64,000 nt of DNA from positions 246,463-310,462 of the forward strand of contig CAJUNH010000001.1 of the NCBI GenBank assembly GCA_910587795.1. Direction: 5' to 3'. A program made the translations under genes and the position numbers. The notes under the pieces are model-generated. The model was not told the origin of the DNA and ran no database searches. It saw only the letters and a list, made by a program, of their open reading frames with translations. Each line of letters begins with the position of its first letter. The first letter of the stretch is position 1. The stretch comes from an uncultured Christensenellaceae bacterium (GTDB lineage Bacteria; Bacillota; Clostridia; Christensenellales; CAG-314). Shown piece after piece: positions 3,039-64,000 of this stretch.

Positions 3039-5231
3039 TTAACCTTTTGTACGGTACACGCTTATAACTGCAGGTATCGTTCGGATTTTGTTCATAAGCT
3101 GCAAAGCTTGATCGTGATTGGAAATTTCCACCGATAAAGTTGCAAGCGCCGAGCCTTTTTTATCCTTGCGAGCATTAATTGCAAGCAAAGGCAAATCTTC
3201 GTTTGCAACAATTTTAATTAGTTCGGCAAATATGTCGCCTTTGTCTTCCGAACGCACCTCGATAGACACAGGGAAGGTCGTGTTTGCGTCCATATTAGAC
3301 CACGCCACGTGCACCAAACGTTCTTTTTCAAGATTTTTTATAGCAGGACAATCCGCACGGTGCACGCAAACACCGCGAGCGCGGGAAATATAGCCTATAA
3401 TCTCATCGCCCGGAACAGGCGAACAGCATCTGGAAAACCGCACAAGTAAATCTTCTACGCCCTTAACAATAACCGAATTATGCCTTGTTGCGGTTTTTTT
3501 ACTGCGGCGCGACGATGTAGGCTCAGGATTAACGGTAACGGTCAAACCCTTGCTTTCGGCAATTAATTTTAACATTACTTGCTGTAACGACAAACTGCCG
3601 TAACCGACGGCAGCATACATTTCGTCGGCATTAGATATCATATAGCGCTCGCACACGGCTTGTATGCCTTTTGCAGTAAGCAATTCCGCGGCAGAAACGC
3701 CTCTATGCTTTGCGTCGCGTTCAATCATTGCCTTACCTGTACGGATATATTCGTCTTTAAGCTCGCGTTTAAAGTATTGACGGATTTTTGCTTTTGCCGA
3801 CGAAGTTTTAACAATTTTAAGCCAGTCGCGAGACGGTCCCTTAGAGTTTGAGTTTGTTAAAACCTCTACCGTATCGCCCGTAGAAAGTTCCGTTTCAAAC
3901 GGCACGATTTTATTATTGATTTTAATACCAACACACTTATTACCAACCTGACTGTGAATTGCGTAGGCAAAATCCAGCGCCGTAGCGCCAGCCGTCATAA
4001 TTTTAACATCTCCCGACGGCGTAAATACGTACACCTCGTTGGTACTGGAAATATTGCGTCTTACCATTTCCAAATACTCTGTACTGTCAACAGCATCGCG
4101 GTCTACGGAAATAACGTCCTTAACCCAACTTAGGTTTTGCTCGATAGGAGCATTGGTTTTAACTCCTTCTTTGTACTTCCAATGCGCGGCAATACCGTAT
4201 TCGGCAATTTTATGCATTTCAAAGGTTCGTATTTGAACCTCTAACGGATAGTTATGTCCTTGAAACTCGATCATAACCGTAGTATGCAGCGATTGATACA
4301 TATTCGGTTTAGGCACGGCAATATAATCTTTAAAGCGCCCGGGAATAGGCTTCCATTTAGCATGAATAGCCCCCAAAACCGCATAACAATCTTTTATCGT
4401 AGGCACTATTACCCTAACCGCAGTTAGATCGTAAATTTGATCTAGCGTACGGTTTAATTTTTTCATTTTCTTGTAAATCGAGTAAAAGTGTTTAGTCCTG
4501 CCGTAAATGTTAAATTCGTCGACGGTTTCCTCTTTTAAAGCAAGTTTAACCTCGTCGATAAATTCGTCTACTATTGCTTCGCGTTCCCTCTTTTTAAGGG
4601 CAATTCCAGAAGCAATTTCGTTATACGCCTGATTATCCAAATAGCTTAGACACAAATCTTCCAATTCGCTTTTTATTGACGAAATACCCAGTCTGCCTGC
4701 AATCGGCGCAATAATATCCAAAGTTTCCTTAGATATTTTTTGTTGTTTTTCAGGAGAAAGGTACATAAGCGAACGCATATTATGCAGACGATCCGCCAAC
4801 TTAATTAGCATTACGCGAATATCTTTTGCCATTGCAAAAAACATTTTACGTAAATTTTCCGCCTGTTCTTCTTCTCGGGAATTAAACAATATCCTATCAA
4901 GTTTTGTAACGCCGTCTACTAAGTCGGCAATTTCATCGCCGAATTGTCTGCGTAGATCGGCGTCGGTCACATACGTGTCCTCAACAGTATCGTGCAATAA
5001 TCCCGCACAAACCGCCGCTACATCCATACCCAAATCAATTAATATATCCGCAACTATCGTTGGATGCGTAATGTACGGTCTGCCGCTTGCGCGGAACTGC
5101 CCTTCGTGCGCTTTATTTGCAAGCGCAAAAGCTTCCTCTATACGCTTAACATCGGGAGTATGATAAAAATGCCTGACCTTCGATATAAAGCTTTTTACGG
5201 TAACTTCAGCCTTTTCCTGTTCTGTCTTCAT
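3039..5231 (-). CDS. relA: bifunctional (p)ppGpp synthetase/hydrolase RelA/SpoT (Rel)
   Basis: 730 aa. HD hydrolase motif (GLLHDTVEDT), RelA/SpoT synthetase core (YRSLH-type QSLHTTV), TGS and ACT regions. Confidence 0.92.
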   Translation of the reverse strand: MKTEQEKAEVTVKSFISKVRHFYHTPDVKRIEEAFALANKAHEGQFRASGRPYITHPTIVADILIDLGMDVAAVCAGLLHDTVEDTYVTDADLRRQFGDEIADLVDGVTKLDRILFNSREEEQAENLRKMFFAMAKDIRVMLIKLADRLHNMRSLMYLSPEKQQKISKETLDIIAPIAGRLGISSIKSELEDLCLSYLDNQAYNEIASGIALKKREREAIVDEFIDEVKLALKEETVDEFNIYGRTKHFYSIYKKMKKLNRTLDQIYDLTAVRVIVPTIKDCYAVLGAIHAKWKPIPGRFKDYIAVPKPNMYQSLHTTVMIEFQGHNYPLEVQIRTFEMHKIAEYGIAAHWKYKEGVKTNAPIEQNLSWVKDVISVDRDAVDSTEYLEMVRRNISSTNEVYVFTPSGDVKIMTAGATALDFAYAIHSQVGNKCVGIKINNKIVPFETELSTGDTVEVLTNSNSKGPSRDWLKIVKTSSAKAKIRQYFKRELKDEYIRTGKAMIERDAKHRGVSAAELLTAKGIQAVCERYMISNADEMYAAVGYGSLSLQQVMLKLIAESKGLTVTVNPEPTSSRRSKKTATRHNSVIVKGVEDLLVRFSRCCSPVPGDEIIGYISRARGVCVHRADCPAIKNLEKERLVHVAWSNMDANTTFPVSIEVRSEDKGDIFAELIKIVANEDLPLLAINARKDKKGSALATLSVEISNHDQALQLMNKIRTIPAVISVYRTKG

Positions 5232-7564: not shown

Positions 7565-8830
7565 TTATTTTTTTGCAACGGATTTGCCGCTAGTTTCATA
7601 AAACGGTTCAATAACAACTTGTGCAAACAATCTGTTAAGACCGAACGTAGCCGCAAAAGAAAGAATTGCGCCGAATACAAGTACCGTACCCATAGGCGCC
7701 GTAACCGCTGTTGGTATAACCCACAAAATTATACCAAGAACCAAAAATGCACCGTGAGCTATAAGGCTTATAATGTTTGTAGATTTAAATCCTTGATAAG
7801 CCGCAGCAGCAAACGTTTTTTCGGCTGCCTTTGCACGTATACGTTCGAAAGTAAATATCGTAAAGAAAGTCATAAACGCATATGCAAGCACAACGCCTAT
7901 TGCCGCAAACAAGTTGAAGATCGACATATAAATCAATGCCAACGAATACATAAACAATACTACAGCAATAAGCTGAGATAAGATACCCGCAATTCCCAAC
8001 GTCTTGTAACGTACTGCAAAAAATACAAACGTAGCCAAAACTGCAACGCCCATAATTACGGCGAATAACCATCCCAACGTATTATTCACGTCTACGATAT
8101 CCAAACGCGTTAATGTGGCGTTAAGCGAGCCGGTCCTGATAACGCTTGCCAAAAATCTACTGCTGTCCTGATTCGAACCGTAAATTTGGAATTGTCCGTT
8201 TTGATAAGTAGCCGCAAAAACGATAGTTTCATCCACGGCATAGCAATACATCGTACCGTCGACCAATTTTGCTTCTTTAACCAACTCTGCGCCTTCACCG
8301 GTAAGTTTAGCCTGACAAATATAATACGTATAGCCGTTATTAGAATAGTTGCGTGTCGTAGCGCCGCGAAGATGCTCTCTTGTAAGAACAACGGCTTTTT
8401 CGTCATAACTTGGTTTCTCGCCTGTATTAGGATATACCGTACTTAAAATTTCAAGCTTACCTTGCTGAGTAATGCTAGACAAAATACTATCGGCGTTAGC
8501 TTTGCGTGTATCTGCCGTTTGGGGCATATTTATAGTGACAACACCGTCTTTTTCGGTAATGTCTACACTGTAATATCCGTATACTTTTTCCAGTCTGCTT
8601 TTAAGAACGCTTTTAACGTGATTAAAATCCGTACCTTCGTCTAACTTAAGTTGATAAGTAGCCTCGACGTAATCGCCGAACATACTGCTTTTTTGAATTA
8701 ATGTATAAGGTGAATAAAATTTATTATATTCGCCGAATTCCAGTCCATCAGGAATAAACGCAAATATGCCGAAAAACAGTACTACTACCGTTATAAGGCA
8801 TAATAATACGATGGACGTCTTCTTTGTCAT
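7565..8830 (-). CDS. secD: SecD-like protein-export membrane protein (half-transporter size)
   Basis: 421 aa. N-terminal TM, large extracytoplasmic domain, then 5 C-terminal TMs. SecD-type motifs: RTGSLNATL...NTLG, RYKTLGIAG, FERIR. Confidence 0.65.
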   Translation of the reverse strand: MTKKTSIVLLCLITVVVLFFGIFAFIPDGLEFGEYNKFYSPYTLIQKSSMFGDYVEATYQLKLDEGTDFNHVKSVLKSRLEKVYGYYSVDITEKDGVVTINMPQTADTRKANADSILSSITQQGKLEILSTVYPNTGEKPSYDEKAVVLTREHLRGATTRNYSNNGYTYYICQAKLTGEGAELVKEAKLVDGTMYCYAVDETIVFAATYQNGQFQIYGSNQDSSRFLASVIRTGSLNATLTRLDIVDVNNTLGWLFAVIMGVAVLATFVFFAVRYKTLGIAGILSQLIAVVLFMYSLALIYMSIFNLFAAIGVVLAYAFMTFFTIFTFERIRAKAAEKTFAAAAYQGFKSTNIISLIAHGAFLVLGIILWVIPTAVTAPMGTVLVFGAILSFAATFGLNRLFAQVVIEPFYETSGKSVAKK

Positions 8831-11195: not shown

Positions 11196-11514
11196 TTAAA
11201 TTTATATCGTTATCGTAAACCCCTTTTTTATAAAAATGCAGGAGTATTACAGAAAAGCAAACGTCCGTTAATTTTATATATCTAATTATTTGAAGTCGAG
11301 CTGCTGCCTATAATTAAAAACTTGCAACGCTGTTAAAATAAGAAAAAGCAAATTCAATCTTTGCATCGCATTTTGTTTTGCCTGTTAATGACAATAAATA
11401 CTATGGTTCGGTATATTTACAGGAAATAAGATTTTTTAATTTATAATTTCGGCACTTAAATCACTCGTTTGCAAGCAGTATTTTTTGTCAAACACAAACT
11501 ATATTTTTACAACT

Positions 11515-23243: not shown

Positions 23244-23635
23244 TTTATTTTCCTCCTAGGATAGTGATATTATATATGAAAGTAATAGTTTTTACAAGTA
23301 TTTTAACAAAATTTAATAATTTTTCATACAATTTAGTATGAAATGTACTAATAGCGGACGTTTTTTAAACGAACAAACCTATCTTAATACCGTATGCAAA
23401 AGCCGCTGCCGTCCTCCCAAAAAAATGAAGCCTAAGGACGACTGTTATTTGGAATGCTGCTGTGACACCGGTTTCGGCAAGCTAACCGTACGGTGCGACA
23501 GACATTCAACGGGAATTTGCTTAGATATCGACAGAGGACGTCACTGCGATAAACACAAAGATTGACAGACTGCAACACAGAAGACATTATAGTACTATTA
23601 TTCTTTGCAAAAAACAACTATTATAAACGGTATAG

Positions 23636-23845
23636 TATTTATATCGTAAACAAATGTCATTTACTCAAAACAATAACTTTTAAGCATAATACGATGCGAT
23701 TCAAATCGAGAACGCTCATAAAACCAGTAATTAATATATCGTAAAACGACAATGTAAATCACAATTAAACGCATTTAGAGTTTTATAATATAATTAAAAA
23801 TCGTTGCATTCCGTTAAACTCAGTAAATTGCTTAATTATGAAGTA
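23636..23845. repeat. modular AT-rich intergenic repeat array, locus A (about 2-3 units of ~100 bp)
   Basis: Cores TATATCGTAAA (23640-23650) and TATATCGTAAAAC (23735-23747), an inverted partner TACGATG (23690-23696), TTCCGTTAAAC and TTGCTTAATTAT blocks. Homologous to arrays at 52965-53235 and 62420-62845. Confidence 0.6.
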
Positions 23846-23906: not shown

Positions 23907-24122
23907 TTACAGATCGTCCGCATCCTGTACGGGATCTGCATATTTCCCCCAACCTACGGGGTTGCCTGTGTAACTACCCGATGGATCGCTTTCGCTTTCC
24001 TGAGCGGACGACTTAGAGTTTTTAGTCTTAGACTTGCCGCAAGATTTATTGCTGCAACCCTTAGTCTTGTTACTTGTCTTAGTGTTACTTGTTTTTGTTC
24101 CTGTACTTTTTGTAGAATTCAT
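23907..24122 (-). CDS. small low-complexity protein (basic K/S/T/N-rich N-half, acidic C-tail), function unknown
   Basis: 71 aa. Strong SD (TAGGAGGTACTTAAA-ATG), own terminator, TTGACA-containing upstream region. Confidence 0.55.
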   Translation of the reverse strand: MNSTKSTGTKTSNTKTSNKTKGCSNKSCGKSKTKNSKSSAQESESDPSGSYTGNPVGWGKYADPVQDADDL

Positions 24123-42449: not shown

Positions 42450-42464
42450 ATTATTAATAAAATA

Positions 42465-42640
42465 ATCCGGTAGGTGAGGCTACCACTGGGATATGGGTTG
42501 CTACCGACTAAACGAGGAGACTCGTCAAGTAAGGTCAGCAGGTTATGTCGAAAACAAGGCATAATCTAACGCAACTACACCGCCCCGTGACGCTAAAGCT
42601 TGTAATGGTTGGACGTCGTTTCCGTATTAGCCATACTGAA
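42465..42640 (+). promoter_or_regulatory. M-box (ykoK) magnesium riboswitch
   Basis: GGTAGGTGAGGC at the 5' end, GTCGAAAACAAGGC, GACGCTAAAGCT and CCATACTG blocks parallel the B. subtilis mgtE M-box. Located directly upstream of mgtE. A weak candidate terminator CTGCG...CGCAG plus T8 lies at 42725-42754. Confidence 0.85.
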
Positions 42641-42786: not shown

Positions 42787-44163
42787 ATGGAATATAACGA
42801 GTTAAACGAACTTGCCGAAAAAATATCGGCATTGCTTACCGAAAAAAATTTCCGTTCGATTAAGTCCATATTGGAAGAAGAAATGCCTCAGGACGTAGCG
42901 GCACTGCTTGAAGATTTACCCGACAAAGATATGCCTGTTATTTTCCGTTTGCTTAACAAAGAACAAGCTGCGGAAACTTTTGTCGAGATGAGTACCGACA
43001 GTCAGGAAATGCTAATAAACGTATTTAGCGACAGCGAGCTTAAAGCTATTTTTGACGAAATGTTCGTAGACGATACGGTAGATATTATCGAAGAAATGCC
43101 CGCAAGCGTCGTTAAACGTATTATAAATCAATCCGACGCCGAAACGCGCAACCAAATCAACCAAATATTGCAATACCCCAAAGACAGCGCGGGCACTATA
43201 ATGACTGTGGAATACGTTAGTCTAAAAAAAAGTTGGACAGTAAAACAATGTTTTGACAGAATACGGAAAACCGCTTTGGATAAGGAAACGGTTTACACCT
43301 GTTACGTAACAGACGAAAAACGTCATTTGACAGGCTGCGTAACTTTAAAAGATTTACTGTTGCACGACGACGGTACTAAAATCGAAGATATTATGGAAAC
43401 CGACGTGTTAAGCGCGGAAACGACCGACGACAAGGAAGACGTTGCTTTGCAAATTTCCAAATACGACCTTAGCGCAATGCCTGTCGTCGATAAGGAAAAC
43501 AGAATGGTAGGCATTATAACCGTAGACGACGTTTTGGACGTAATCGAACAGGAAGCAACCGAAGATATTGCCAAAATGGCGGCAATTACACCGTCGAACG
43601 ACGCTTACTTCGAACAAAGCGTTTGGCAAATATGGAAAAACCGTATTCCTTGGCTGCTGCTGCTTATGGTTTCGGCAACGTTTACTGGACTTATTATTAA
43701 TGCCTACGAGGCAACTCTGTCCGCACTTCTTTTTGCTTGCGTACCTATGATAATGGGCACCGGCGGTAATGCGGGAAGCCAAGCTTCGGTAACCATCACT
43801 CGCAGTCTTGCAATAAACGAAATCAGTCCAAGAGACGCATTTAAAGTTTTGTGGAAAGAATTACGGGTATCTCTTTCGTTAGGCTTAGTGCTTGCCGCCG
43901 CGTGTTTTGCAAAACTCTATCTTTTGGACGGCTTGGCATTTGGAAACGAATATACTTGGCAAATATGTTTGACGGTATCTATAGCATTATTTGTGACAAT
44001 AGTAATTGCAAAATTAATCGGCTGTTTGATGCCGATTTTGGCAAAACTTTGCAAACTCGACCCTGCCGTTGTAGCAAGTCCTTTTATTACCACTATCGTA
44101 GACATATTATCTCTCGTTATATACTGCTTAATTGCACAAGCAATGTTAGGCGGCACAATGTAA
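42787..44163 (+). CDS. mgtE: magnesium transporter MgtE
   Basis: 458 aa. N-domain, tandem CBS domains, 5-TM C-domain with the GNAGSQ motif. Confidence 0.95.
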   Translation: MEYNELNELAEKISALLTEKNFRSIKSILEEEMPQDVAALLEDLPDKDMPVIFRLLNKEQAAETFVEMSTDSQEMLINVFSDSELKAIFDEMFVDDTVDIIEEMPASVVKRIINQSDAETRNQINQILQYPKDSAGTIMTVEYVSLKKSWTVKQCFDRIRKTALDKETVYTCYVTDEKRHLTGCVTLKDLLLHDDGTKIEDIMETDVLSAETTDDKEDVALQISKYDLSAMPVVDKENRMVGIITVDDVLDVIEQEATEDIAKMAAITPSNDAYFEQSVWQIWKNRIPWLLLLMVSATFTGLIINAYEATLSALLFACVPMIMGTGGNAGSQASVTITRSLAINEISPRDAFKVLWKELRVSLSLGLVLAAACFAKLYLLDGLAFGNEYTWQICLTVSIALFVTIVIAKLIGCLMPILAKLCKLDPAVVASPFITTIVDILSLVIYCLIAQAMLGGTM

Positions 44164-44447: not shown

Positions 44448-44543
44448 TAAATTGTAACAGATCTGGTGAGTCCTTCATATATAACGATTTCATATTATTG
44501 CATTTACTTAATCCGTTACAAAATTTTTAGGAGGTACCTCAAG

Positions 44544-44756
44544 ATGACCACAGGTACGGTTAAATGGTTCGATGCAGGCAAAGGTTACGGATTTATTTCC
44601 AATGATAACGGCGGAGAGGATATTTTTGTTCATTTCTCTGCTATTCAAGTCGAAGGTTTTAAAACATTAAAAGATGGACAAAAAGTTACTTTTGACGTAG
44701 AACAAGACGCGAAAAACGGAAAACTACGTGCTGCAAACGTTAAACCAGCAGAATAA
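44544..44756 (+). CDS. cspA: cold-shock protein (CspA family)
   Basis: 70 aa. [15 protein letters not shown] (RNP1) and DIFVHFSAI (RNP2). SD TAGGAGGTACCTCAAG-ATG. The 26-aa ORF-track extension was dropped. Confidence 0.95.
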
Positions 44757-44778
44757 TTTGTCGCAAGATACATTATTT

Positions 44779-44815
44779 AAAGACGCAGAATATAAGTTCT
44801 GCGTCTTTCTTTTTA
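44779..44815 (+). terminator. intrinsic terminator after csp
   Basis: AAAGACGCAGAA-TATAAG-TTCTGCGTCTTT followed by CTTTTT. Confidence 0.75.
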
Positions 44816-45197: not shown

Positions 45198-46181
45198 TTA
45201 TACGTTTATCTGTTTGACGGTTAAAGTTGTATTCACTCCATCACCCAACGTAATACCCACGGCAAGCAATGCAGAAAGCGCCATATCAATTACGTCGCCC
45301 GCAGTCAACGAAATAATAATACTTCCGCTATATAATGAGCTTACTCCAACTGACAAAGCTCGCGATATCGTCGCCTGAGGAATCGCCGTTCCGTTTCTGC
45401 GCACCGACATCGTAACCGTAGTACCAAGCGCCGCCGAAACATTAGAGAAGTAATTGATTTCATATACCCCGGTAGCACCCACCGTAAGACTGTTGACCGG
45501 CGTATTTGTTACATTTTTCAACGGCATAGCGGAAGGAAGAGGCAATTGCGTAGTCCCTCCTAGAGTTAAATTAAGCGTTTGCGGAGTTGTATTATATACA
45601 CCGCCGTAAGCATTTAGGTCGGTCGTACCGGCGGGGCCGATAGCCCCTGTGGGACCTGTCGCACCTGTTGCGCCTGTTGCGCCAACGGGACCTGCTGCTC
45701 CTGTAGGTCCGATAGGACCCGTCGCGCCTGTATTACCTGAAACGCCTTGTAAACCTTGAATACCTTGCATACCCTGAGGACCCTGCGGTCCAGTCGCACC
45801 TGTTGCGCCTGTAACTCCGGTTGGTCCGATAGGACCTGTCGCGCCCGTATTACCCGCAATACCTTGTAAGCCTTGAATACCTTGCAAACCTTGGGGACCT
45901 GTCGCACCTGTTGCGCCTGTTGCGCCAACGGGACCTGCCGCTCCTGTAGGTCCGATAGGACCCGTTGCTCCTGTTAAGCCTTGCAAACCTTGGATTCCCT
46001 GAGGACCTTGAGGTCCGGCAGCACCTGTGGCACCGGTTGCGCCTTGATTTCCCGGAGGTCCCATTATTCCCTGGGGACCTGTAAATCCGCGAGGTCCGCG
46101 GACTCCGCGTTCGATAACAATCAAACGGTCGTCGCGAGACTCGTTGTGTATACAGTCGCATCTTCTTCTACAACAATTCAT
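45198..46181 (-). CDS. collagen-like repeat protein with BclA-type C-terminal domain (exosporium glycoprotein-like)
   Basis: About 327 aa from ATG 46181 (AAGGAGAAAAGTTT-ATG). Cys/Arg-rich N-terminus [10 protein letters not shown], about 160 aa of uninterrupted G-X-Y (GPQG, GATG triplets), then a beta-rich CTD of about 140 aa resembling BclA. Confidence 0.85.
45624..46103 (-). repeat. G-X-Y collagen triplet region with higher-order internal repeats of about 100-120 nt
   Basis: [38 protein letters not shown] recurs three times (the third copy is partial). It produces long spurious ORFs in the other frames. Confidence 0.8.
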
Positions 46182-46359
46182 AAACTTTTCTCCTTGTACA
46201 TTATTTGAGCAACGCTCTACAATCATACTATTGATTAATTTATATTTATGTTACAGAGCTGACGCACTAACACTTTTGAATGAACCTCTTATTTAATAAC
46301 GTCGGCTTTTGCTTTTTTTTCAGTAATTTGAAATTTTTTTAAAAGAAATTAAAAAAACG

Positions 46360-52838: not shown

Positions 52839-52964
52839 TCCGCACCTCTTTTTATAACATTAGCATATTATAGTAGCATGCCGAATTTTAAAAGTCAATT
52901 AAATATAACAAATAACGGCAATATACGCCGTATTATTGCCGAACTCAAATTGCGTTTATAAAGA

Positions 52965-53235
52965 AACCTTTAAGCATAATGTTTAAGCACAGCTAAATTT
53001 CGCTAAATTTATTTAATTGCTTAACTATATCGCAAAACAACTATGCTAAATCAAATAAATTATTGTTAAACCTTTTACGATATAATTAAAATCAATCGAA
53101 TTCTGTTAAAATCAGTAAATTGTTAATTATATCGTACACGAATAGCGCGGGCTCAAATCAGTAATTTCCAAGCGTGATACGATGTAATTTTAAGTTCCGT
53201 TAAATCATTTAATCGCTTAATTATAAAATATAAAG
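52965..53235. repeat. modular AT-rich intergenic repeat array, locus B (3 units of ~100 bp)
   Basis: TTGCTTAACTATATCGCAAAAC (53017-53038), inverted TTTTACGATATAATTAA (53073-53089), TTGTTAATTATATCGTACAC (53121-53139), inverted GTGATACGATGTAATTTTA (53174-53192), terminal CGCTTAATTATAAAATA (53213-53230). Confidence 0.6.
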
Positions 53236-59440: not shown

Positions 59441-59698
59441 TTAAAGCAATTTCTCCAGCACTTGCGCTATTTCGTTGATTTTTTCCTTACCCTGTTCGCC
59501 GCAAGCGTCTATAACGCAATTTTCGAGATGCGCGCGCAATACCTCTCTGTTTACTTTTGTCAGTATAGCTTGGCAAGCCATTATTTGATTAGAAATATCT
59601 ATACAGTAACGGTTTTCCTCTACCATTTTAATTATGCCTTCTATTTGACCGCGCGCTGTATTTAACAGTCTTTTGGTTGTAATCCTATCTCCTTTCAT
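59441..59698 (-). CDS. csoR: CsoR family copper-sensing repressor
   Basis: 85 aa. RxxGQxxG (RGQIEGI), C-x-H-x-C ligand pattern (YCID...HLENC). Confidence 0.85.
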   Translation of the reverse strand: MKGDRITTKRLLNTARGQIEGIIKMVEENRYCIDISNQIMACQAILTKVNREVLRAHLENCVIDACGEQGKEKINEIAQVLEKLL

Positions 59699-62298
59699 AT
59701 TGCTTTGACCTCCGTAACGGTATAATCCTGAGCTTCTACGGCGTTTTTAAGACTTTCTGCCGTAACGTCGGCGTTTGCGCTTACGTCCGCAGTACCGTTT
59801 TGTAAGTCCGCTGAGGCATGGTCTACGCCGTCGACAGAAAGTAATGCGTTAGTAACGTGCGATACGCAGCGCATACACATCATACCCTCGATTTTAAGTT
59901 GATATTTCATTTTGCTTTCCTCCTTGCATTTTTTGCAATTATTATGTTGTAGTATAGGTTCCGTACGGCACTTTGAGCTGCCGCACGCTTTATCGCTGCA
60001 GATTGGTTTTGCTGCTATTTCAGCCGCATTTGTATGTGAATATTTTAAATGCTTAGACGGTTTAAATATCCTGAGCCTTAACGCATTAAGCACCACAAAC
60101 AAACTCGATACGCTCATTGCCGCCGCGCCTATCATGGGATTTAGACTTAATGCAAGCGGAGTGATAAAAAGCACTCCCGCGGCAATCGGTATACCCAAAG
60201 TATTGTAGAAAAACGCCCAAAACAAGTTTTGCTTGATATTTCGGCGGGTAGCGCGGCTTAACTCTATTGCATACGGTACGTCGCGGATATCGTTTTTCAT
60301 CAATAATGCGTCCGCGCTGTCCATAGCAATATCCGCACCGCTGGATACGGCAAAACCAACGTCTGCACGGGTAAGCGCGGGAGCGTCGTTGATTCCGTCT
60401 CCCACCATTGCCGTCACGCCGTCTTTCATAAGCTCTGCAACGACTTTTTCCTTATCGGCAGGCATAACGTCCGCGCGATAGTCGTCTATGCCGACCTGAG
60501 ACGCAACGGCCTTTGCGGCAAGTTCGTTATCGCCGGTAAGCAATACGGGCTTAACCCCCAACGCTTTTAGTCGGGTTACAGCCTCGAAGCTAGTAGGTTT
60601 AATTTCGTCGCCGACGCCTATAACGCCTATATATTTGCCGTCGCACGATACGTGTAAGCAAGTAAGCCCTTTATCGTAAAATCCGCCGTATACGTCTTTA
60701 AATTCCGTACAATCAACATTGTACTCCTCCAAAAGACGGAGATTACCTATACAGTAAAAATGCCCCTCGACAGTTGCCGTAACTCCGCGTCCCGCAAGAG
60801 TCTCGTACGACGACGGAACGCAAAGCTCAATACCTAACATTACCGCTTTGTCCACCACCGCGCGTCCCAAAGGGTGTTCGCTCAGTTTTTCTATTCCCCC
60901 GACAATCGAATAAAATTTACTTTCGTCCATCGAAGAAAAGCTATCGACCACATTCGGCTTGCCCAAAGTCAGCGTTCCCGTTTTATCCAACACAACCTGC
61001 TTGATTGCCGCAAGACGTTCCAGCGTTTCGCCGTCTTTTATTAAAATGCCGTGTTCTGCCGATTTGCCCGCAGATACCATTATTGCAACCGGTGTTGCCA
61101 ACCCCAGCGCACAGGGACACGATATTACCAACACGGAAACAGCAAAGTCCAACGCCATAGAAAAAGGCTTACCCACGCACAGCCACACTATAAAAGTAAC
61201 GAGAGATATACTCATTACTATCGGCACGAATACCGACGAAATTTTATCCGCGAGACGTTGGCTGGGCGCCTTAGACGAACCCGCGTCTTCCACAAGTTGG
61301 ATTATCTTACTGAGTATACTGTCTTGTCCTACGCTTGTAACTTCCACCTGTACGTAACCGCTGACGCTTACCGTACCGCCTATTACAAAATCGCCCTGCT
61401 GTTTTTCGCGGGGGAGACTTTCGCCGTTTACGCTGCTTTCGTCGGCAAAACAACTGCCCGAGATTATATTTCCGTCGGCGGGAAACGCCATGCCCGCTTT
61501 AACTATTACGACATCCCCGACTTTAACAGTTTTACCGTCTATTTCCCGCTCCTCCCCGTCGATAAGCACTATCGCAGTTTGCGGAGCCAATTTTTTAAGT
61601 TTATTAATAGCATCGCCCGTTTTTATTTTGGAGCGGCCTTCAAAATATTTACCCAAATCTACAAGCGCAAGAATCATAGCGGACGATTCAAAATAAAGCA
61701 AATGGCGGTAATATTCTACCGTTTCGATATCTCCTCTGCCGAGAGCGCTGCTTGTAATAAACATAACTATCACTCCGTATAACGCGCCCGCAAAAGATCC
61801 CACGGCAATTAAGCTGTCCATATTTGGAGAAAGCCGAAAAAGCCTTTTAAAACCTACGATAAAATAACTGCGGTTGATATACCATACGGGCAGACACAGC
61901 AGAAATTGCGCCAGCGCAAACGATACGGCATTTTGCGCGCCCTCCAAAAAGGACGGCAAAGGCAGCCCTATCATATGCCCCATAGATACATACATCAGTA
62001 CAATACAAAACCCTATTGATACAAGCACCCTTGCAAGTGTGACTGCGGGTTTTTGCTTAACGGGCTTTGCTTCTTTATCAGTTTGGTTTCCCTTGACGCT
62101 TGCTCCGTAACCGGACTTTTCCACCGCGGCAATTATTGCCTGCACAGAAGTTGTTTTTCCGTCAAAATCCACCGTCATACTGTTTGTAAGCAGACTTACG
62201 GAAACCTTATTTACCCCGTCCAGTTTGTTTACCGCTTTTTCCACGTGCGCCGAGCAGGCAGAGCAGGTCATACCCAGTACGTCAAAACGTTGTTTCAA
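59695..62298 (-). CDS. copA: copper-translocating P1B-1 ATPase CopA with an extra C-terminal HMA (CopZ-like) domain
   Basis: 867 aa. N-terminal GMTCSAC, CPC, DKTGTLT, GDGINDAP. After the last TM come a Cys-rich linker and a second HMA domain (MKYQLKIEGMMCMRCVSHV). TTG start. Confidence 0.9.
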   Translation of the reverse strand: MKQRFDVLGMTCSACSAHVEKAVNKLDGVNKVSVSLLTNSMTVDFDGKTTSVQAIIAAVEKSGYGASVKGNQTDKEAKPVKQKPAVTLARVLVSIGFCIVLMYVSMGHMIGLPLPSFLEGAQNAVSFALAQFLLCLPVWYINRSYFIVGFKRLFRLSPNMDSLIAVGSFAGALYGVIVMFITSSALGRGDIETVEYYRHLLYFESSAMILALVDLGKYFEGRSKIKTGDAINKLKKLAPQTAIVLIDGEEREIDGKTVKVGDVVIVKAGMAFPADGNIISGSCFADESSVNGESLPREKQQGDFVIGGTVSVSGYVQVEVTSVGQDSILSKIIQLVEDAGSSKAPSQRLADKISSVFVPIVMSISLVTFIVWLCVGKPFSMALDFAVSVLVISCPCALGLATPVAIMVSAGKSAEHGILIKDGETLERLAAIKQVVLDKTGTLTLGKPNVVDSFSSMDESKFYSIVGGIEKLSEHPLGRAVVDKAVMLGIELCVPSSYETLAGRGVTATVEGHFYCIGNLRLLEEYNVDCTEFKDVYGGFYDKGLTCLHVSCDGKYIGVIGVGDEIKPTSFEAVTRLKALGVKPVLLTGDNELAAKAVASQVGIDDYRADVMPADKEKVVAELMKDGVTAMVGDGINDAPALTRADVGFAVSSGADIAMDSADALLMKNDIRDVPYAIELSRATRRNIKQNLFWAFFYNTLGIPIAAGVLFITPLALSLNPMIGAAAMSVSSLFVVLNALRLRIFKPSKHLKYSHTNAAEIAAKPICSDKACGSSKCRTEPILQHNNCKKCKEESKMKYQLKIEGMMCMRCVSHVTNALLSVDGVDHASADLQNGTADVSANADVTAESLKNAVEAQDYTVTEVKAI

Positions 62299-62304
62299 TT
62301 AAAG

Positions 62305-62357
62305 ATACCCCCACGTAGTATATGTGTTATTATACGGCAAATTTGAGACATTTGCAA
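62305..62357 (-). promoter_or_regulatory. copA promoter with a CsoR-type operator
   Basis: Minus strand: TTGCAA (62352-62357), 17 nt, TATAAT (62329-62334), then ATACTACGTGGGGGTAT (62305-62321). That G-tract pseudo-palindrome resembles CsoR boxes and overlaps the GGGGG SD of the TTG start. Confidence 0.55.
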
Positions 62358-62419
62358 CAGAATTTATACGATTGACGAAAACTTTTTTTGACTTATACGC
62401 AACGTAAAGCATTTACAGC

Positions 62420-62845
62420 ACAGATGTTCAGTCAATAATATCGTAACGCAATATATTTTAAATAAATTAACGCTAAAATTTTACGATGTAATAAAACTAT
62501 GAAAGTTCAGTTAACCAAATTATTTGCTTAATTATATCGTAAAACAGCTAATGTAACTCGCAACTAAACGCAGTTAGTCGTTTTAGAACCTAATTAAGAG
62601 CTGTTAGGTTCCTTTAAATATTATTAATAACTTAATTATATCCTACGCGAATAACGCTAGCTCAAAACAATAACCTATAAGCGTGATACGATGTAATTAA
62701 ATTCGAAAAATTTTATTTGATCCGATTAATTGCTTAATTATATCGTAAAACAGTTAATGTTAAATCAAATAAATTATTGTTAGACCTTTTACAATGTGAT
62801 TAAGACCGTTGCGTTCCGTTAAACCCGATTAATTATAAAATAGAT
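62420..62845. repeat. modular AT-rich intergenic repeat array, locus C (about 5 units of ~93-105 bp)
   Basis: Forward cores near 62434, 62524-62545, 62629-62650, 62730-62751 and 62826-62843 (TTGCTTAATTATATCGTAAAAC type). They alternate with inverted cores at 62478-62495, 62683-62701 and 62787-62804 (TTTTACGATGTAAT type). Confidence 0.65.
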
Positions 62846-62846
62846 G

Positions 62847-62875
62847 TTGCTTGAAAAATACGTTTATGTTACAAT
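62847..62875 (+). promoter_or_regulatory. sigma-A promoter of the GDPD gene
   Basis: TTGCTT (62847-62852), 17 nt, TACAAT (62870-62875). Confidence 0.5.
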
Positions 62876-62998
62876 ATAATATAAATTTGTCTATCAACTT
62901 TTTTTGTAAAAATTTACTGAAAACGGCCGTAATAAAATTCATTTGCGTTTTACTTATAACTTTTTTACATAAAACGGCAATATAAGGAGAACAACACT

Positions 62999-64000
62999 AT
63001 GACTAAAATCCGCCGCAAGTTTAATTGGAAGATTTTTTGCGTTGTAATTGCCTGCATATTTGCGGTATATTTAACGATAGCGATGCTTCCGCGTACAAAG
63101 TGCTACGAGGGAGAAAATCCGTTTGTAATAAAAGAAAACGAAAAACCGCTGCTTATTGCGCACGGAGGCGGAAACAGAGAATTTCCCGACAACACTTTGG
63201 AAGCGTGCTACAACGCTTACAGCGCAGACCCTGACGTAATGTTGGAAATGGACGTATCCGTTACAAAAGACGGAAAAATCATTATGTCCCACGACACCAC
63301 TTTGGACAAACGCACAAACGTAAGCGGAGCGATTGCCGACTGGACGTACGACGACCTTTTAAACCAAAAGGTTGATTTCGGTTATCTTAACAAAAAAGAC
63401 GAAAACGGCAAAGTTACCGAAATGATTAAATTTACAAACGACGACAAAGTTGAGGTTACGCCGCTGGACGTAGTTTATCCCGAAGGGGTGACGGCGCGCG
63501 ACGATAAAATTTTTAAAGTAACGCTGCTTACCGAAGTTTTGGAATCCTTTCCGCACAATACCGTAAACGTAGAAATAAAGCAAGACGGCGACACCGGACT
63601 TAAAGCGTTAAACGCCGTAATAAAGATACTGGAAGAACATAACGCTTTCGACCGCGTCGTGCTGGCGTCCTTCCACAGTGAAATATACAAAGAACTTAAA
63701 CATATTAAAAAGACGGCGCACCCCGATTTGATGTGTTCGCCCGAATACGTAGGCGTGGGAACGCTGCTAATTTCCGGCGCACTGGCTTTGGACGCGTTTT
63801 ACGCCGAGCCTGTTGCCGTATTGCAAATACCGATGAGTATGTCCGTAATCCGCTTGGATAAGAAATGGTTTGTAAACGCTGCGCATAAGCATAATATCGC
63901 CGTACACTACTGGACTATCGACAACGAAGAAGATATGAAATATTTAATAGAGATAGGAGCGGACGGCATAATGACAAACTATCCGCACCGATTGCAAAAA
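62999..64000 (+). CDS. membrane-anchored glycerophosphodiester phosphodiesterase family protein (3' end outside window)
   Basis: Not in the ORF track because it has no stop in the window. AAGGAGAACAACACT-ATG at 62999, N-terminal TM, then GDPD motifs (IAHGGGNREFPDNTLEA, EMDVSVTKDGKIIMSHD, VHYWTIDNEEDMKYLIEIGADGIMTNYP). Confidence 0.8.
   Translation, partial: MTKIRRKFNWKIFCVVIACIFAVYLTIAMLPRTKCYEGENPFVIKENEKPLLIAHGGGNREFPDNTLEACYNAYSADPDVMLEMDVSVTKDGKIIMSHDTTLDKRTNVSGAIADWTYDDLLNQKVDFGYLNKKDENGKVTEMIKFTNDDKVEVTPLDVVYPEGVTARDDKIFKVTLLTEVLESFPHNTVNVEIKQDGDTGLKALNAVIKILEEHNAFDRVVLASFHSEIYKELKHIKKTAHPDLMCSPEYVGVGTLLISGALALDAFYAEPVAVLQIPMSMSVIRLDKKWFVNAAHKHNIAVHYWTIDNEEDMKYLIEIGADGIMTNYPHRLQK

Follow-up and report, generated by a model that had tools for sequence, protein, structure and literature searches.

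In a 64,000-nt stretch of DNA from an uncultured Christensenellaceae bacterium (contig CAJUNH010000001.1 of assembly GCA_910587795.1, positions 246,463 to 310,462; hereafter the window), three non-coding regions carry head-to-tail arrays of a ~100-bp repeat whose core is a 17-nt sequence present in both orientations. On a balance that tips only slightly in favour, the arrays are regarded here as a family of lineage-restricted, non-coding interspersed repeats not described before, of the same general kind as REPINs (doublets of repetitive extragenic palindromic, or REP, sequences that form hairpins), bacterial interspersed mosaic elements (BIMEs) and miniature inverted-repeat transposable elements (MITEs). 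The repeat is most likely a REPIN/BIME-like non-autonomous element. Its reading as a selfish or semi-selfish sequence rests on a combination of properties: it is non-coding, exclusively intergenic and present at multiple loci; it is missing from syntenic sister species and occurs elsewhere in more distant relatives; its subtypes cross species boundaries; its arms are conserved as sequence; its units decay; and the neighbouring genes share no common theme. From these sequences we infer that the repeat is mobile.

The repeat unit and its three arrays

The 17-mer TTAATTATATCGTAAAA, allowing three or fewer mismatches, occurs 13 times in the window, compared with a mean of 1.6 (maximum 5) in shuffled sequence, and its convincing copies are confined to three places. 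A unit profile searched with nhmmer recovers eight full-length units in the window, all on the + strand, with E values from 5.6e-11 to 2.6e-21, in spans at 62431-62833 (four units), 53018-53216 (two) and 23635-23831 (two); the next-best matches in the window all have E >0.09. The three arrays, all on the + strand and all non-coding, have their limits at 62432-62837 (array A), 52962-53225 (array B) and 23635-23839 (array C). The 17-mer excess and the significant profile matches thus bear out the initial annotation, made from the letters of this DNA, which had described a modular ~100-bp repeat with related arrays near 52965-53235 and 23636-23845, where the units of arrays B and C are indeed found. 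Its further proposal of degenerate fragments at 270-345 and 11255-11290 fails, as neither place gives a profile match at E<1. The claim that the repeat is exclusively intergenic holds, in that the non-coding 13.5 % of the window contains all three arrays (~86 % being coding).

Read in order, each unit has TTAATTATATCGTAAAAC as left arm, ~32 nt of loop, the reverse-complementary GTTTTACGATRTAATTAA as right arm and a spacer of ~30 nt that holds TTCCGTTAAA, mostly with TTGC at its end. The arms, 17-18 nt long and inverted around the variable loop, could form a hairpin of ~68 nt in single-stranded DNA or RNA, while the spacer (TTCCGTTAA...TTGC), beyond the inverted arms, is repeated together with them in every species that carries the family. 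This order recurs two to four times per array with a head-to-tail period of 95-105 bp. The loops fall into subtypes X1 (units A4 and B1), X2 (A2 and C2) and Y (A3, B2 and C1), with Y units having an inner stem of ACACG/CGTGA, with a one-base bulge, instead of AAAAC/GTTTT. The subtypes follow one another differently in each array: unassigned-X2-Y-X1 in array A, Y (decayed)-X1-Y in array B and Y-X2 in array C. Pairwise identity between units within the window is only 49-73 %, and for this reason Tandem Repeats Finder reports none of the three arrays. Conservation is concentrated in the arms, whose column identity is 88-89 %, as against 67-68 % for loop and spacer.

Array A lies in the 702-nt spacer that separates copA (59695-62298, - strand, followed by csoR) from a gene of the GDPD family that starts at 63000 on the + strand, and fills the space between the divergent promoters of the two. 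The copA-csoR promoter-like site found by a sigma-70 scan (TTGCAA-17-TATAAT, 62329-62357, - strand) borders the decayed end of the array, and the GDPD promoter-like site (TTGAAA-18-TATAAT, 11/12; 62851-62880, + strand) lies beyond its other end, within ~15 nt of the terminal half arm. From the copA side, the + strand units are A1 (62432-62527; 39.0 bits, E 5.6e-11), the most decayed full unit, with arms recognized by motif matches at 62433-62445 (left) and 62479-62495 (right); A2 (62528-62631; 60.9 bits), of subtype X2, in which an inverted-repeat search places an exact left arm at 62528-62545 and a mutated right arm at 62580-62598; A3 (62632-62733; 64.2 bits by nhmmer and 93.4 bits by covariance model), of subtype Y, with an inner stem ACGCG/CGTGA bearing a one-base bulge and with pair 19-59 being C-G, as in Y units; and A4 (62734-62828; 72.2 bits, E 2.6e-21), of subtype X1 and the best preserved, with arms at 62734-62750 and 62787-62803 and TTCCGTTAAA at 62814-62823. 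A truncated left arm, TTAATTATA, closes the array at 62829-62837 (TTAATTATAAAATA at 62829-62842). Hence the array is head-to-tail, as originally described, but has four full units, not about five, followed by a truncated arm at the end. Between the copA promoter and A1, the + strand sequence at 62362-62431 (TTTATACGATTGAC..., TTATACGCAACGTAAAG) reads as heavily decayed remnants of further units, a call made from the sequence by eye and not significant by hidden Markov model (HMM). Within A2, the GAACCTAA-N10-TTAGGTTC hairpin that had been singled out as a variant does exist, at 62586-62611, and consists of the mutated right arm and the GTTCC motif of the spacer; it is probably incidental, because it is weakened by two single-nucleotide polymorphisms (SNPs; 62607 G>A and 62611 C>T) that a second strain lineage carries.

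Arrays B and C each separate the terminator of one - strand gene from the promoter region of the following one. Array B begins with B0 (52962-53020, + strand), a decayed partial unit of Y type that nhmmer matches weakly (model positions 42-107, E 0.59) and that, on reading, resembles the loop and right arm of C1. It is followed on the same strand by B1 (53021-53122; subtype X1, 66.6 bits), whose loop is 85 % identical to that of A4 and 88 % identical to that of a unit in another species (L110, see below), by B2 (53123-53216; subtype Y, 64.8 bits) and by the truncated arm TTAATTATA at 53217-53225 (TTAATTATAAAATA at 53217-53230). Array C, also on the + strand, is made up of C1 (23635-23730; subtype Y, 53.5 bits), C2 (23731-23831; subtype X2, 56.2 bits by nhmmer and 77.7 bits by covariance model) and the truncated arm TTAATTAT at 23832-23839 (TTAATTATGAAGTA at 23832-23845).

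Array polarity and occurrence in related bacteria

All three arrays of the window close in the same manner, with a spacer followed by TTAATTAT(A) and then unrelated sequence, and the earlier observation that the last units of arrays A and B share an ending is accurate, both closing with TTAATTATA. The same ending (spacer plus TTAATTAT(A)) closes six of six high-scoring arrays when the comparison is extended to L023 and L010, two stretches of the Christensenellaceae metagenome-assembled genome (MAG) MGBC143961, and to L110, a stretch of the Christensenellaceae MAG MGBC153675 (L-numbers are labels of the DNA stretches compared). Towards this half-arm end the HMM score rises, from 39 through 61 and 64 to 72 bits in array A, from 7 to 67 and 65 (about equal) in array B and from 53 to 56 in array C, and likewise in the other species from 75 to 85 in L023 and from 35 to 76 in L010. 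The opposite end of the array fades to unrecognisable remnants. On both sides of the single units in L110 and in L179 (a stretch of GCA_023667435) stands a direct repeat, 9-10 nt long, of the head of the unit's own arm (TTAATTATA...TTAATAATA in L110; TTTTATTGTA...TTTTATTGTA in L179). Since the flanking TTAATTATA repeat does not differ between loci, it may belong to the element and not represent a target duplication.

The family is present in at least four species, namely that of the window, MGBC143961, MGBC153675 and GCA_023667435, at loci that differ from those of the window. MGBC143961 has two arrays 32 kb apart (L023 730-937 and L010 6264-6426), MGBC153675 a single unit (L110 1028-1129), and GCA_023667435 a diverged variant with the arm TRTATTRTATCGTACACG at three loci. 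L010, L023 and L110 are the true members, three of 117 stretches, among the matches listed in a 17-mer scan of a genome collection, the rest being chance matches. A pattern scan of metagenomes for the terminal module gave eight matches, all due to chance. Across species, loop identity is 79-88 % for X1 (window species against L110) and reaches 73-79 % for Y, whereas orthologous proteins of the two clades are 33-82 % identical and flanking DNA cannot be aligned; neutral vertical descent therefore cannot explain the likeness of the loops. GC skew is weak at the family loci of the other species. In L179, the spacer portion of the unit is expanded into runs with a 10-nt period (roughly AGTAGTTAGN) at 8567-8633, 3630-3686 and 8697-8743, and blocks of 136 nt (81 % identity) and 69 nt (86 %, inverted) are common to two loci 4.9 kb apart.

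Three sister species, with RecO 69-76 % identical, keep the gene order from copA to recO and the ABC gene, and neither the profile nor the covariance model finds the repeat family in them; their recO-ABC spacers measure 121, 194 and 233 nt vs 460 nt in the window. Upstream of copA, these species have 340-700 nt of unrelated GC-rich DNA (L135 976-1671, L138 509-1142, L140 850-1185) with short inverted repeats and blocks common to all three, e.g. CGAGCGAATTCCACAA.GCGTAGA.TGTTTCCACA. The family was also not found in ~20 kb each from relatives of MGBC153675 (L158-L164) and from L181; in all, seven relatives sampled at ~20 kb each, the syntenic sister species included, yield no family member in that DNA. 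L181, whose contig is without the repeat, carries two to three broken copies of an IS200-like Y1 transposase (KWNCKYH.VFAPKYRRK...) beside deoD, at 190-1000; these tnpA pieces are the sole lead towards a RAYT-like gene. A YidC search for relatives of MGBC143961 returned none above 69 % identity.

By exact protein matches, the window belongs to an uncultured species with several MAGs, and the annotation of its homologues goes no further than Clostridia, Clostridiales or 'Ca. Fimimonas'. Among conspecific strains, MAG contigs are 99.9-100 % identical to the window, with one assembly having a gap of N inside array B. This is GCA_948497315.1 (L118 10727-11171), in which array B contains a run of N and a 15-nt loss; over 20.7 kb of comparison with the window, 12 of 13 mismatches fall in the array B spacer, ten of them at N positions. 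The repeat therefore evidently breaks short-read assembly. Between two strain lineages, SNP density is 2.0-2.7 % in the arrays vs ~1 % overall, which looks like that of weakly constrained DNA. In addition to arrays, single decayed copies exist, as indicated by a solo remnant (TTTTACAATGCAATTAA right arm plus partial spacer) upstream of a 454-aa gene ~1.7 kb past the right end of the window (L142 7540-7575).

Relationship to known repeat families and competing explanations

Searches for a described family were negative: Rfam 15 gave nothing at gathering score at the array loci (the best matches in E-value mode, with E up to 10, scored 17-22 bits), blastn of plasmids and phages found no match to the repeat, pattern scans of viral contigs yielded chance 18-mers only and no two-arm match, and string searches of the literature found none either. 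The initial statement that the sequence belongs to no recognised family is thus upheld on every one of these fronts. Its comparison with BOX/RUP/ERIC-type elements or a MITE family also fits, inasmuch as the repeat is non-coding, modular, found at multiple loci and absent from syntenic sister species; however, REPINs and BIME clusters resemble it more closely than BOX, RUP and ERIC do.

REPIN clusters consist of tandem REPINs with their flanks, the largest having four REPINs and one extra REP (PMC3116915), a layout that is also that of array A. The likeness to REPINs extends to two conserved sequences of ~16-17 nt inverted around a less conserved spacer, a hairpin of ~70-110 nt, confinement to extragenic space, as seen for the three arrays of the window, families divided into subtypes, and arms that are conserved above the intervening sequence. 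On the other hand, compensatory changes are reported to be common in REPINs, whereas here one pair covaries, and, unlike in REPIN-RAYT systems (RAYT being the REP-associated tyrosine transposase, a Y1 HUH enzyme whose gene the repeats typically flank), no RAYT gene was found in ~77 kb of the host genome. A REP is an imperfect palindrome of 20-40 nt with a GTAG or CGTC tag at one end (PMC3733652), and RAYT classes have been reported for Cyanobacteria, Bacteroidetes and Proteobacteria, not Clostridia (PMC6006769). The evidence does not support placing the repeat in the REP family proper, because the arms are non-palindromic and lack GTAG/CGTC, no RAYT was seen and the survey lists no RAYT classes for Clostridia.

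With BIMEs, which are clusters of motifs in alternating orientation joined by alternating linkers (PMC3733652), the arrays share the alternating orientation, linkers that alternate between two kinds (here the loop and the spacer), a mixture of motif subtypes within arrays (here X1, X2 and Y), an intergenic location and a unit number that varies between loci, but the BIME motif is the palindromic REP of ~35 nt. Placement is a second point of difference, as most arrays here lie upstream of a gene. BIMEs of Escherichia coli and other enterobacteria are mostly located at gene 3' ends or where two genes converge, and they bind IHF, gyrase or Pol I. MITEs (Correia/NEMIS, RUP, ERIC, BOX), elements with inverted-repeat ends, resemble the repeat in being small, non-coding, AT-rich and hairpin-capable, and in being multi-copy, intergenic and lineage-restricted. 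The repeat, too, has inverted arms, but with a conserved spacer outside them, so that the arms do not simply form the unit's two ends; no parent insertion sequence (IS) with the same ends was matched in plasmids, phages or viral contigs; and MITEs are usually scattered singly, not set in polar head-to-tail arrays. Classical MITE membership is thus unproven, given the spacer outside the arms and the lack of a parent IS or a clean target duplication. A CRISPR array was rejected, since the motif alternates in orientation and both loops and spacers are conserved across units, loci and species. Zur/Fur/PerR, Spo0A boxes, CodY/cre sites, sigma-54/ECF promoters, dif/Xer, parS, Ter and attC sites and type III antitoxin repeats were dropped, there being no match in the sequence.

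For the favoured REPIN/BIME-like reading, a mechanism can be outlined in which the arms would serve as recognition sequences for a protein acting in trans, the likeliest candidate being a transposase-like enzyme encoded elsewhere in the genome, with a single-strand (HUH/Y1-type) enzyme as one possibility. New units would join beside a TTAATTATA end already in place, either through site-preferring insertion or through duplication there, such that arrays would grow at one end while older units decay; growth at the half-arm end is suggested by the consistent polarity together with the age gradient. Effects on the neighbours (copA, the ABC transporter, acpP and the GDPD gene) would be incidental.

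Several findings weigh against this reading. Copy counts cover ~77 kb of the host genome (the window plus ~13 kb flanks), and in the same DNA Pfam finds no transposase or RAYT-like gene, only housekeeping genes. As compared with a REP, the arm TTAATTATATCGTAAAAC has no internal stem beyond a TAATTA hexamer, no GTAG and no CGTC. No gain or loss of units is seen relative to the second strain lineage (~99 % identical), and there is thus no sign of current activity. Neither at recO-ABC nor downstream of the DUF4364 gene was there a precise empty site with alignable flanks. Finally, the deoD-rpmH spacer is occupied by the family in two species whose YidC proteins are 67 % identical, and this shared occupancy could reflect a conserved host function.

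That last point bears directly on the best-surviving alternative, itself an improbable one, in which the arrays are cis-acting platforms of the host, with the 17-mer bound by a regulator, a nucleoid-associated protein or a partition-type protein and with alternating sites ~50 bp apart organising or regulating gene-upstream regions. Besides the deoD-rpmH spacer with its conserved TAATTRTAAACAC-TTGACTTTG junction, such a role is consistent with the arms being the best-conserved part of the unit and changing without compensation, with the location of five of six arrays upstream of a gene that is read divergently, the decayed end facing that gene's promoter, and with the half arm sitting directly upstream of a -35 box in two arrays (at the GDPD gene and at rpmH in L023). 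The junction TAATT(A/G)TAAACAC-TTGACTTTG-N17-TAAAAT is kept upstream of rpmH in both L023 (938-1000) and L179 (9125-9175), and by virtue of this conservation the terminal half arm at rpmH may double as an upstream element of the rpmH promoter. However, the neighbours (copA, an ABC exporter, acpP, deoD/rpmH and a DUF4364 gene) have no common theme, syntenic sister species lack arrays at the same genes, the L110 unit lies between two convergent genes, and both the progressive decay of units and the strain SNP density given above argue against maintained platforms. Neither 10.5-bp phasing of A/T tracts nor intrinsic curvature in the arrays differs from that in other spacers.

A structured non-coding RNA made from the + strand, whether a multi-copy small RNA or a long repeat RNA with the hairpin as its functional fold, is less probable still. 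In favour of an RNA, single hairpins, at -4 to -20 kcal/mol, beat shuffled sequence in most units (z -2 to -6.6), as does the + strand of array A folded whole (z -2.5); in 8 of 12 units a G in the right arm faces a T in the left, giving a U-G position that pairs on the + strand only; and promoter-like + strand sites stand directly ahead of arrays A (62412-62441) and C (23562-23590), with a bidirectional terminator after array C. Yet these energies are modest and show no strand preference, each strand being favoured in 6 of 12 units; array B has no + strand promoter-like site upstream; and Rfam is without a match even at E up to 10. The alignment of 12 units from three species is more telling. 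In it, 80-83 % of arm cells pair, vs 30-46 % with the partner slid by 1-3 columns, which agrees with the original description of two sequence blocks as inverted copies of each other, but shuffles within columns give 81 %, so that column composition accounts for the pairing. Only one pair covaries, from A-U to C-G, and it corresponds to the X/Y subtype difference; almost no single-arm mutation is compensated in the opposite arm; and RNAalifold predicts no consensus fold. The covariation check that the initial annotation had proposed therefore speaks against a conserved RNA structure, and two of its related suggestions fare no better: the weak promoter read in its fourth block (TTGCTT-17-GTTAAT) is not a promoter-like site in any unit by sigma-70 scan, and the idea of small transcription units meets with no terminator after the hairpins. 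With arm identity above that of the loop, pairing equal to shuffles and no compensation, the pattern points to arms kept as sequence, as would be expected for recognition by a protein and not for a selected RNA fold.

Plain local tandem duplication, with the arrays as minisatellites arising by slippage or unequal crossing-over, with occasional recombination between loci and with no dedicated enzyme or function, is just as doubtful, for although it accounts for the head-to-tail arrangement with its regular period and for the multi-unit blocks shared by two L179 loci, units resemble same-subtype units of other arrays or species more than they resemble the other units of their own array (A2 vs A4, 65 %; B1 vs L110, 79 %, with loops at 88 %), the arrays are mosaics of X1, X2 and Y in differing orders, Tandem Repeats Finder does not report them, and independent slippage would not be expected to leave six unlinked loci, in three species, with one and the same truncated-arm ending.

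Genomic setting and significance

The window is core chromosome of a spore-forming member of the Clostridia, with ruvABC, infC-rplT, thrS, acpP, ftsZ/ftsA, a mur/dcw cluster and spo0A, and it also carries mgtE with an M-box, a BclA-like collagen gene, recO-era-ybeY-phoH-yqfD and copA-csoR. The M-box riboswitch (42459-42620, 92.9 bits) lies ahead of mgtE (42787-44163), and a match of the cspA-thermoregulator type (44483-44810; 81 bits, cut-off 78) overlies a cold-shock-domain gene. The collagen-repeat gene (45198-46226, - strand; Pfam Collagen and BclA_C), which has tandem repeats of 9 and 117 nt, probably encodes an exosporium protein. Close to array C are two further features. Between the acpP start (23243, - strand) and the array, ~370 nt of relatively GC-rich non-coding DNA (23260-23630) has several possible stems and no Rfam match even at E up to 10, and might be an unrecognised leader or small RNA. 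Just upstream of ftsZ, a 71-aa open reading frame rich in Ser, Thr and Lys (23907-24122, - strand) has a good ribosome-binding site, a strong terminator and no Pfam match.

For copA and the other neighbouring genes, the arrays suggest no new regulatory principle. Their practical consequences are that such repeats break MAG assemblies and inflate intergenic regions, and they could mark strains or species of a gut lineage that has not been cultured. As a bolder and rather unlikely proposal, the family might be the visible half of a REPIN-RAYT-like system of Clostridia, a group from which no such system is known, in which an unrecognised enzyme would add units at the TTAATTATA end, arrays would be chronological stacks and arm variants would co-evolve across a family-level clade; if so, the youngest unit would be next to the half arm and the oldest would be decaying at the far end of the array. 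Proteobacteria and Cyanobacteria are the main groups from which REP/REPIN-type repeats and their domesticated transposases are known. A similar family among spore-forming Clostridia of the gut would, given the polarity of its arrays and its cross-species subtypes, extend the REP/REPIN phenomenon and would offer a handle for finding the mobilising enzyme.

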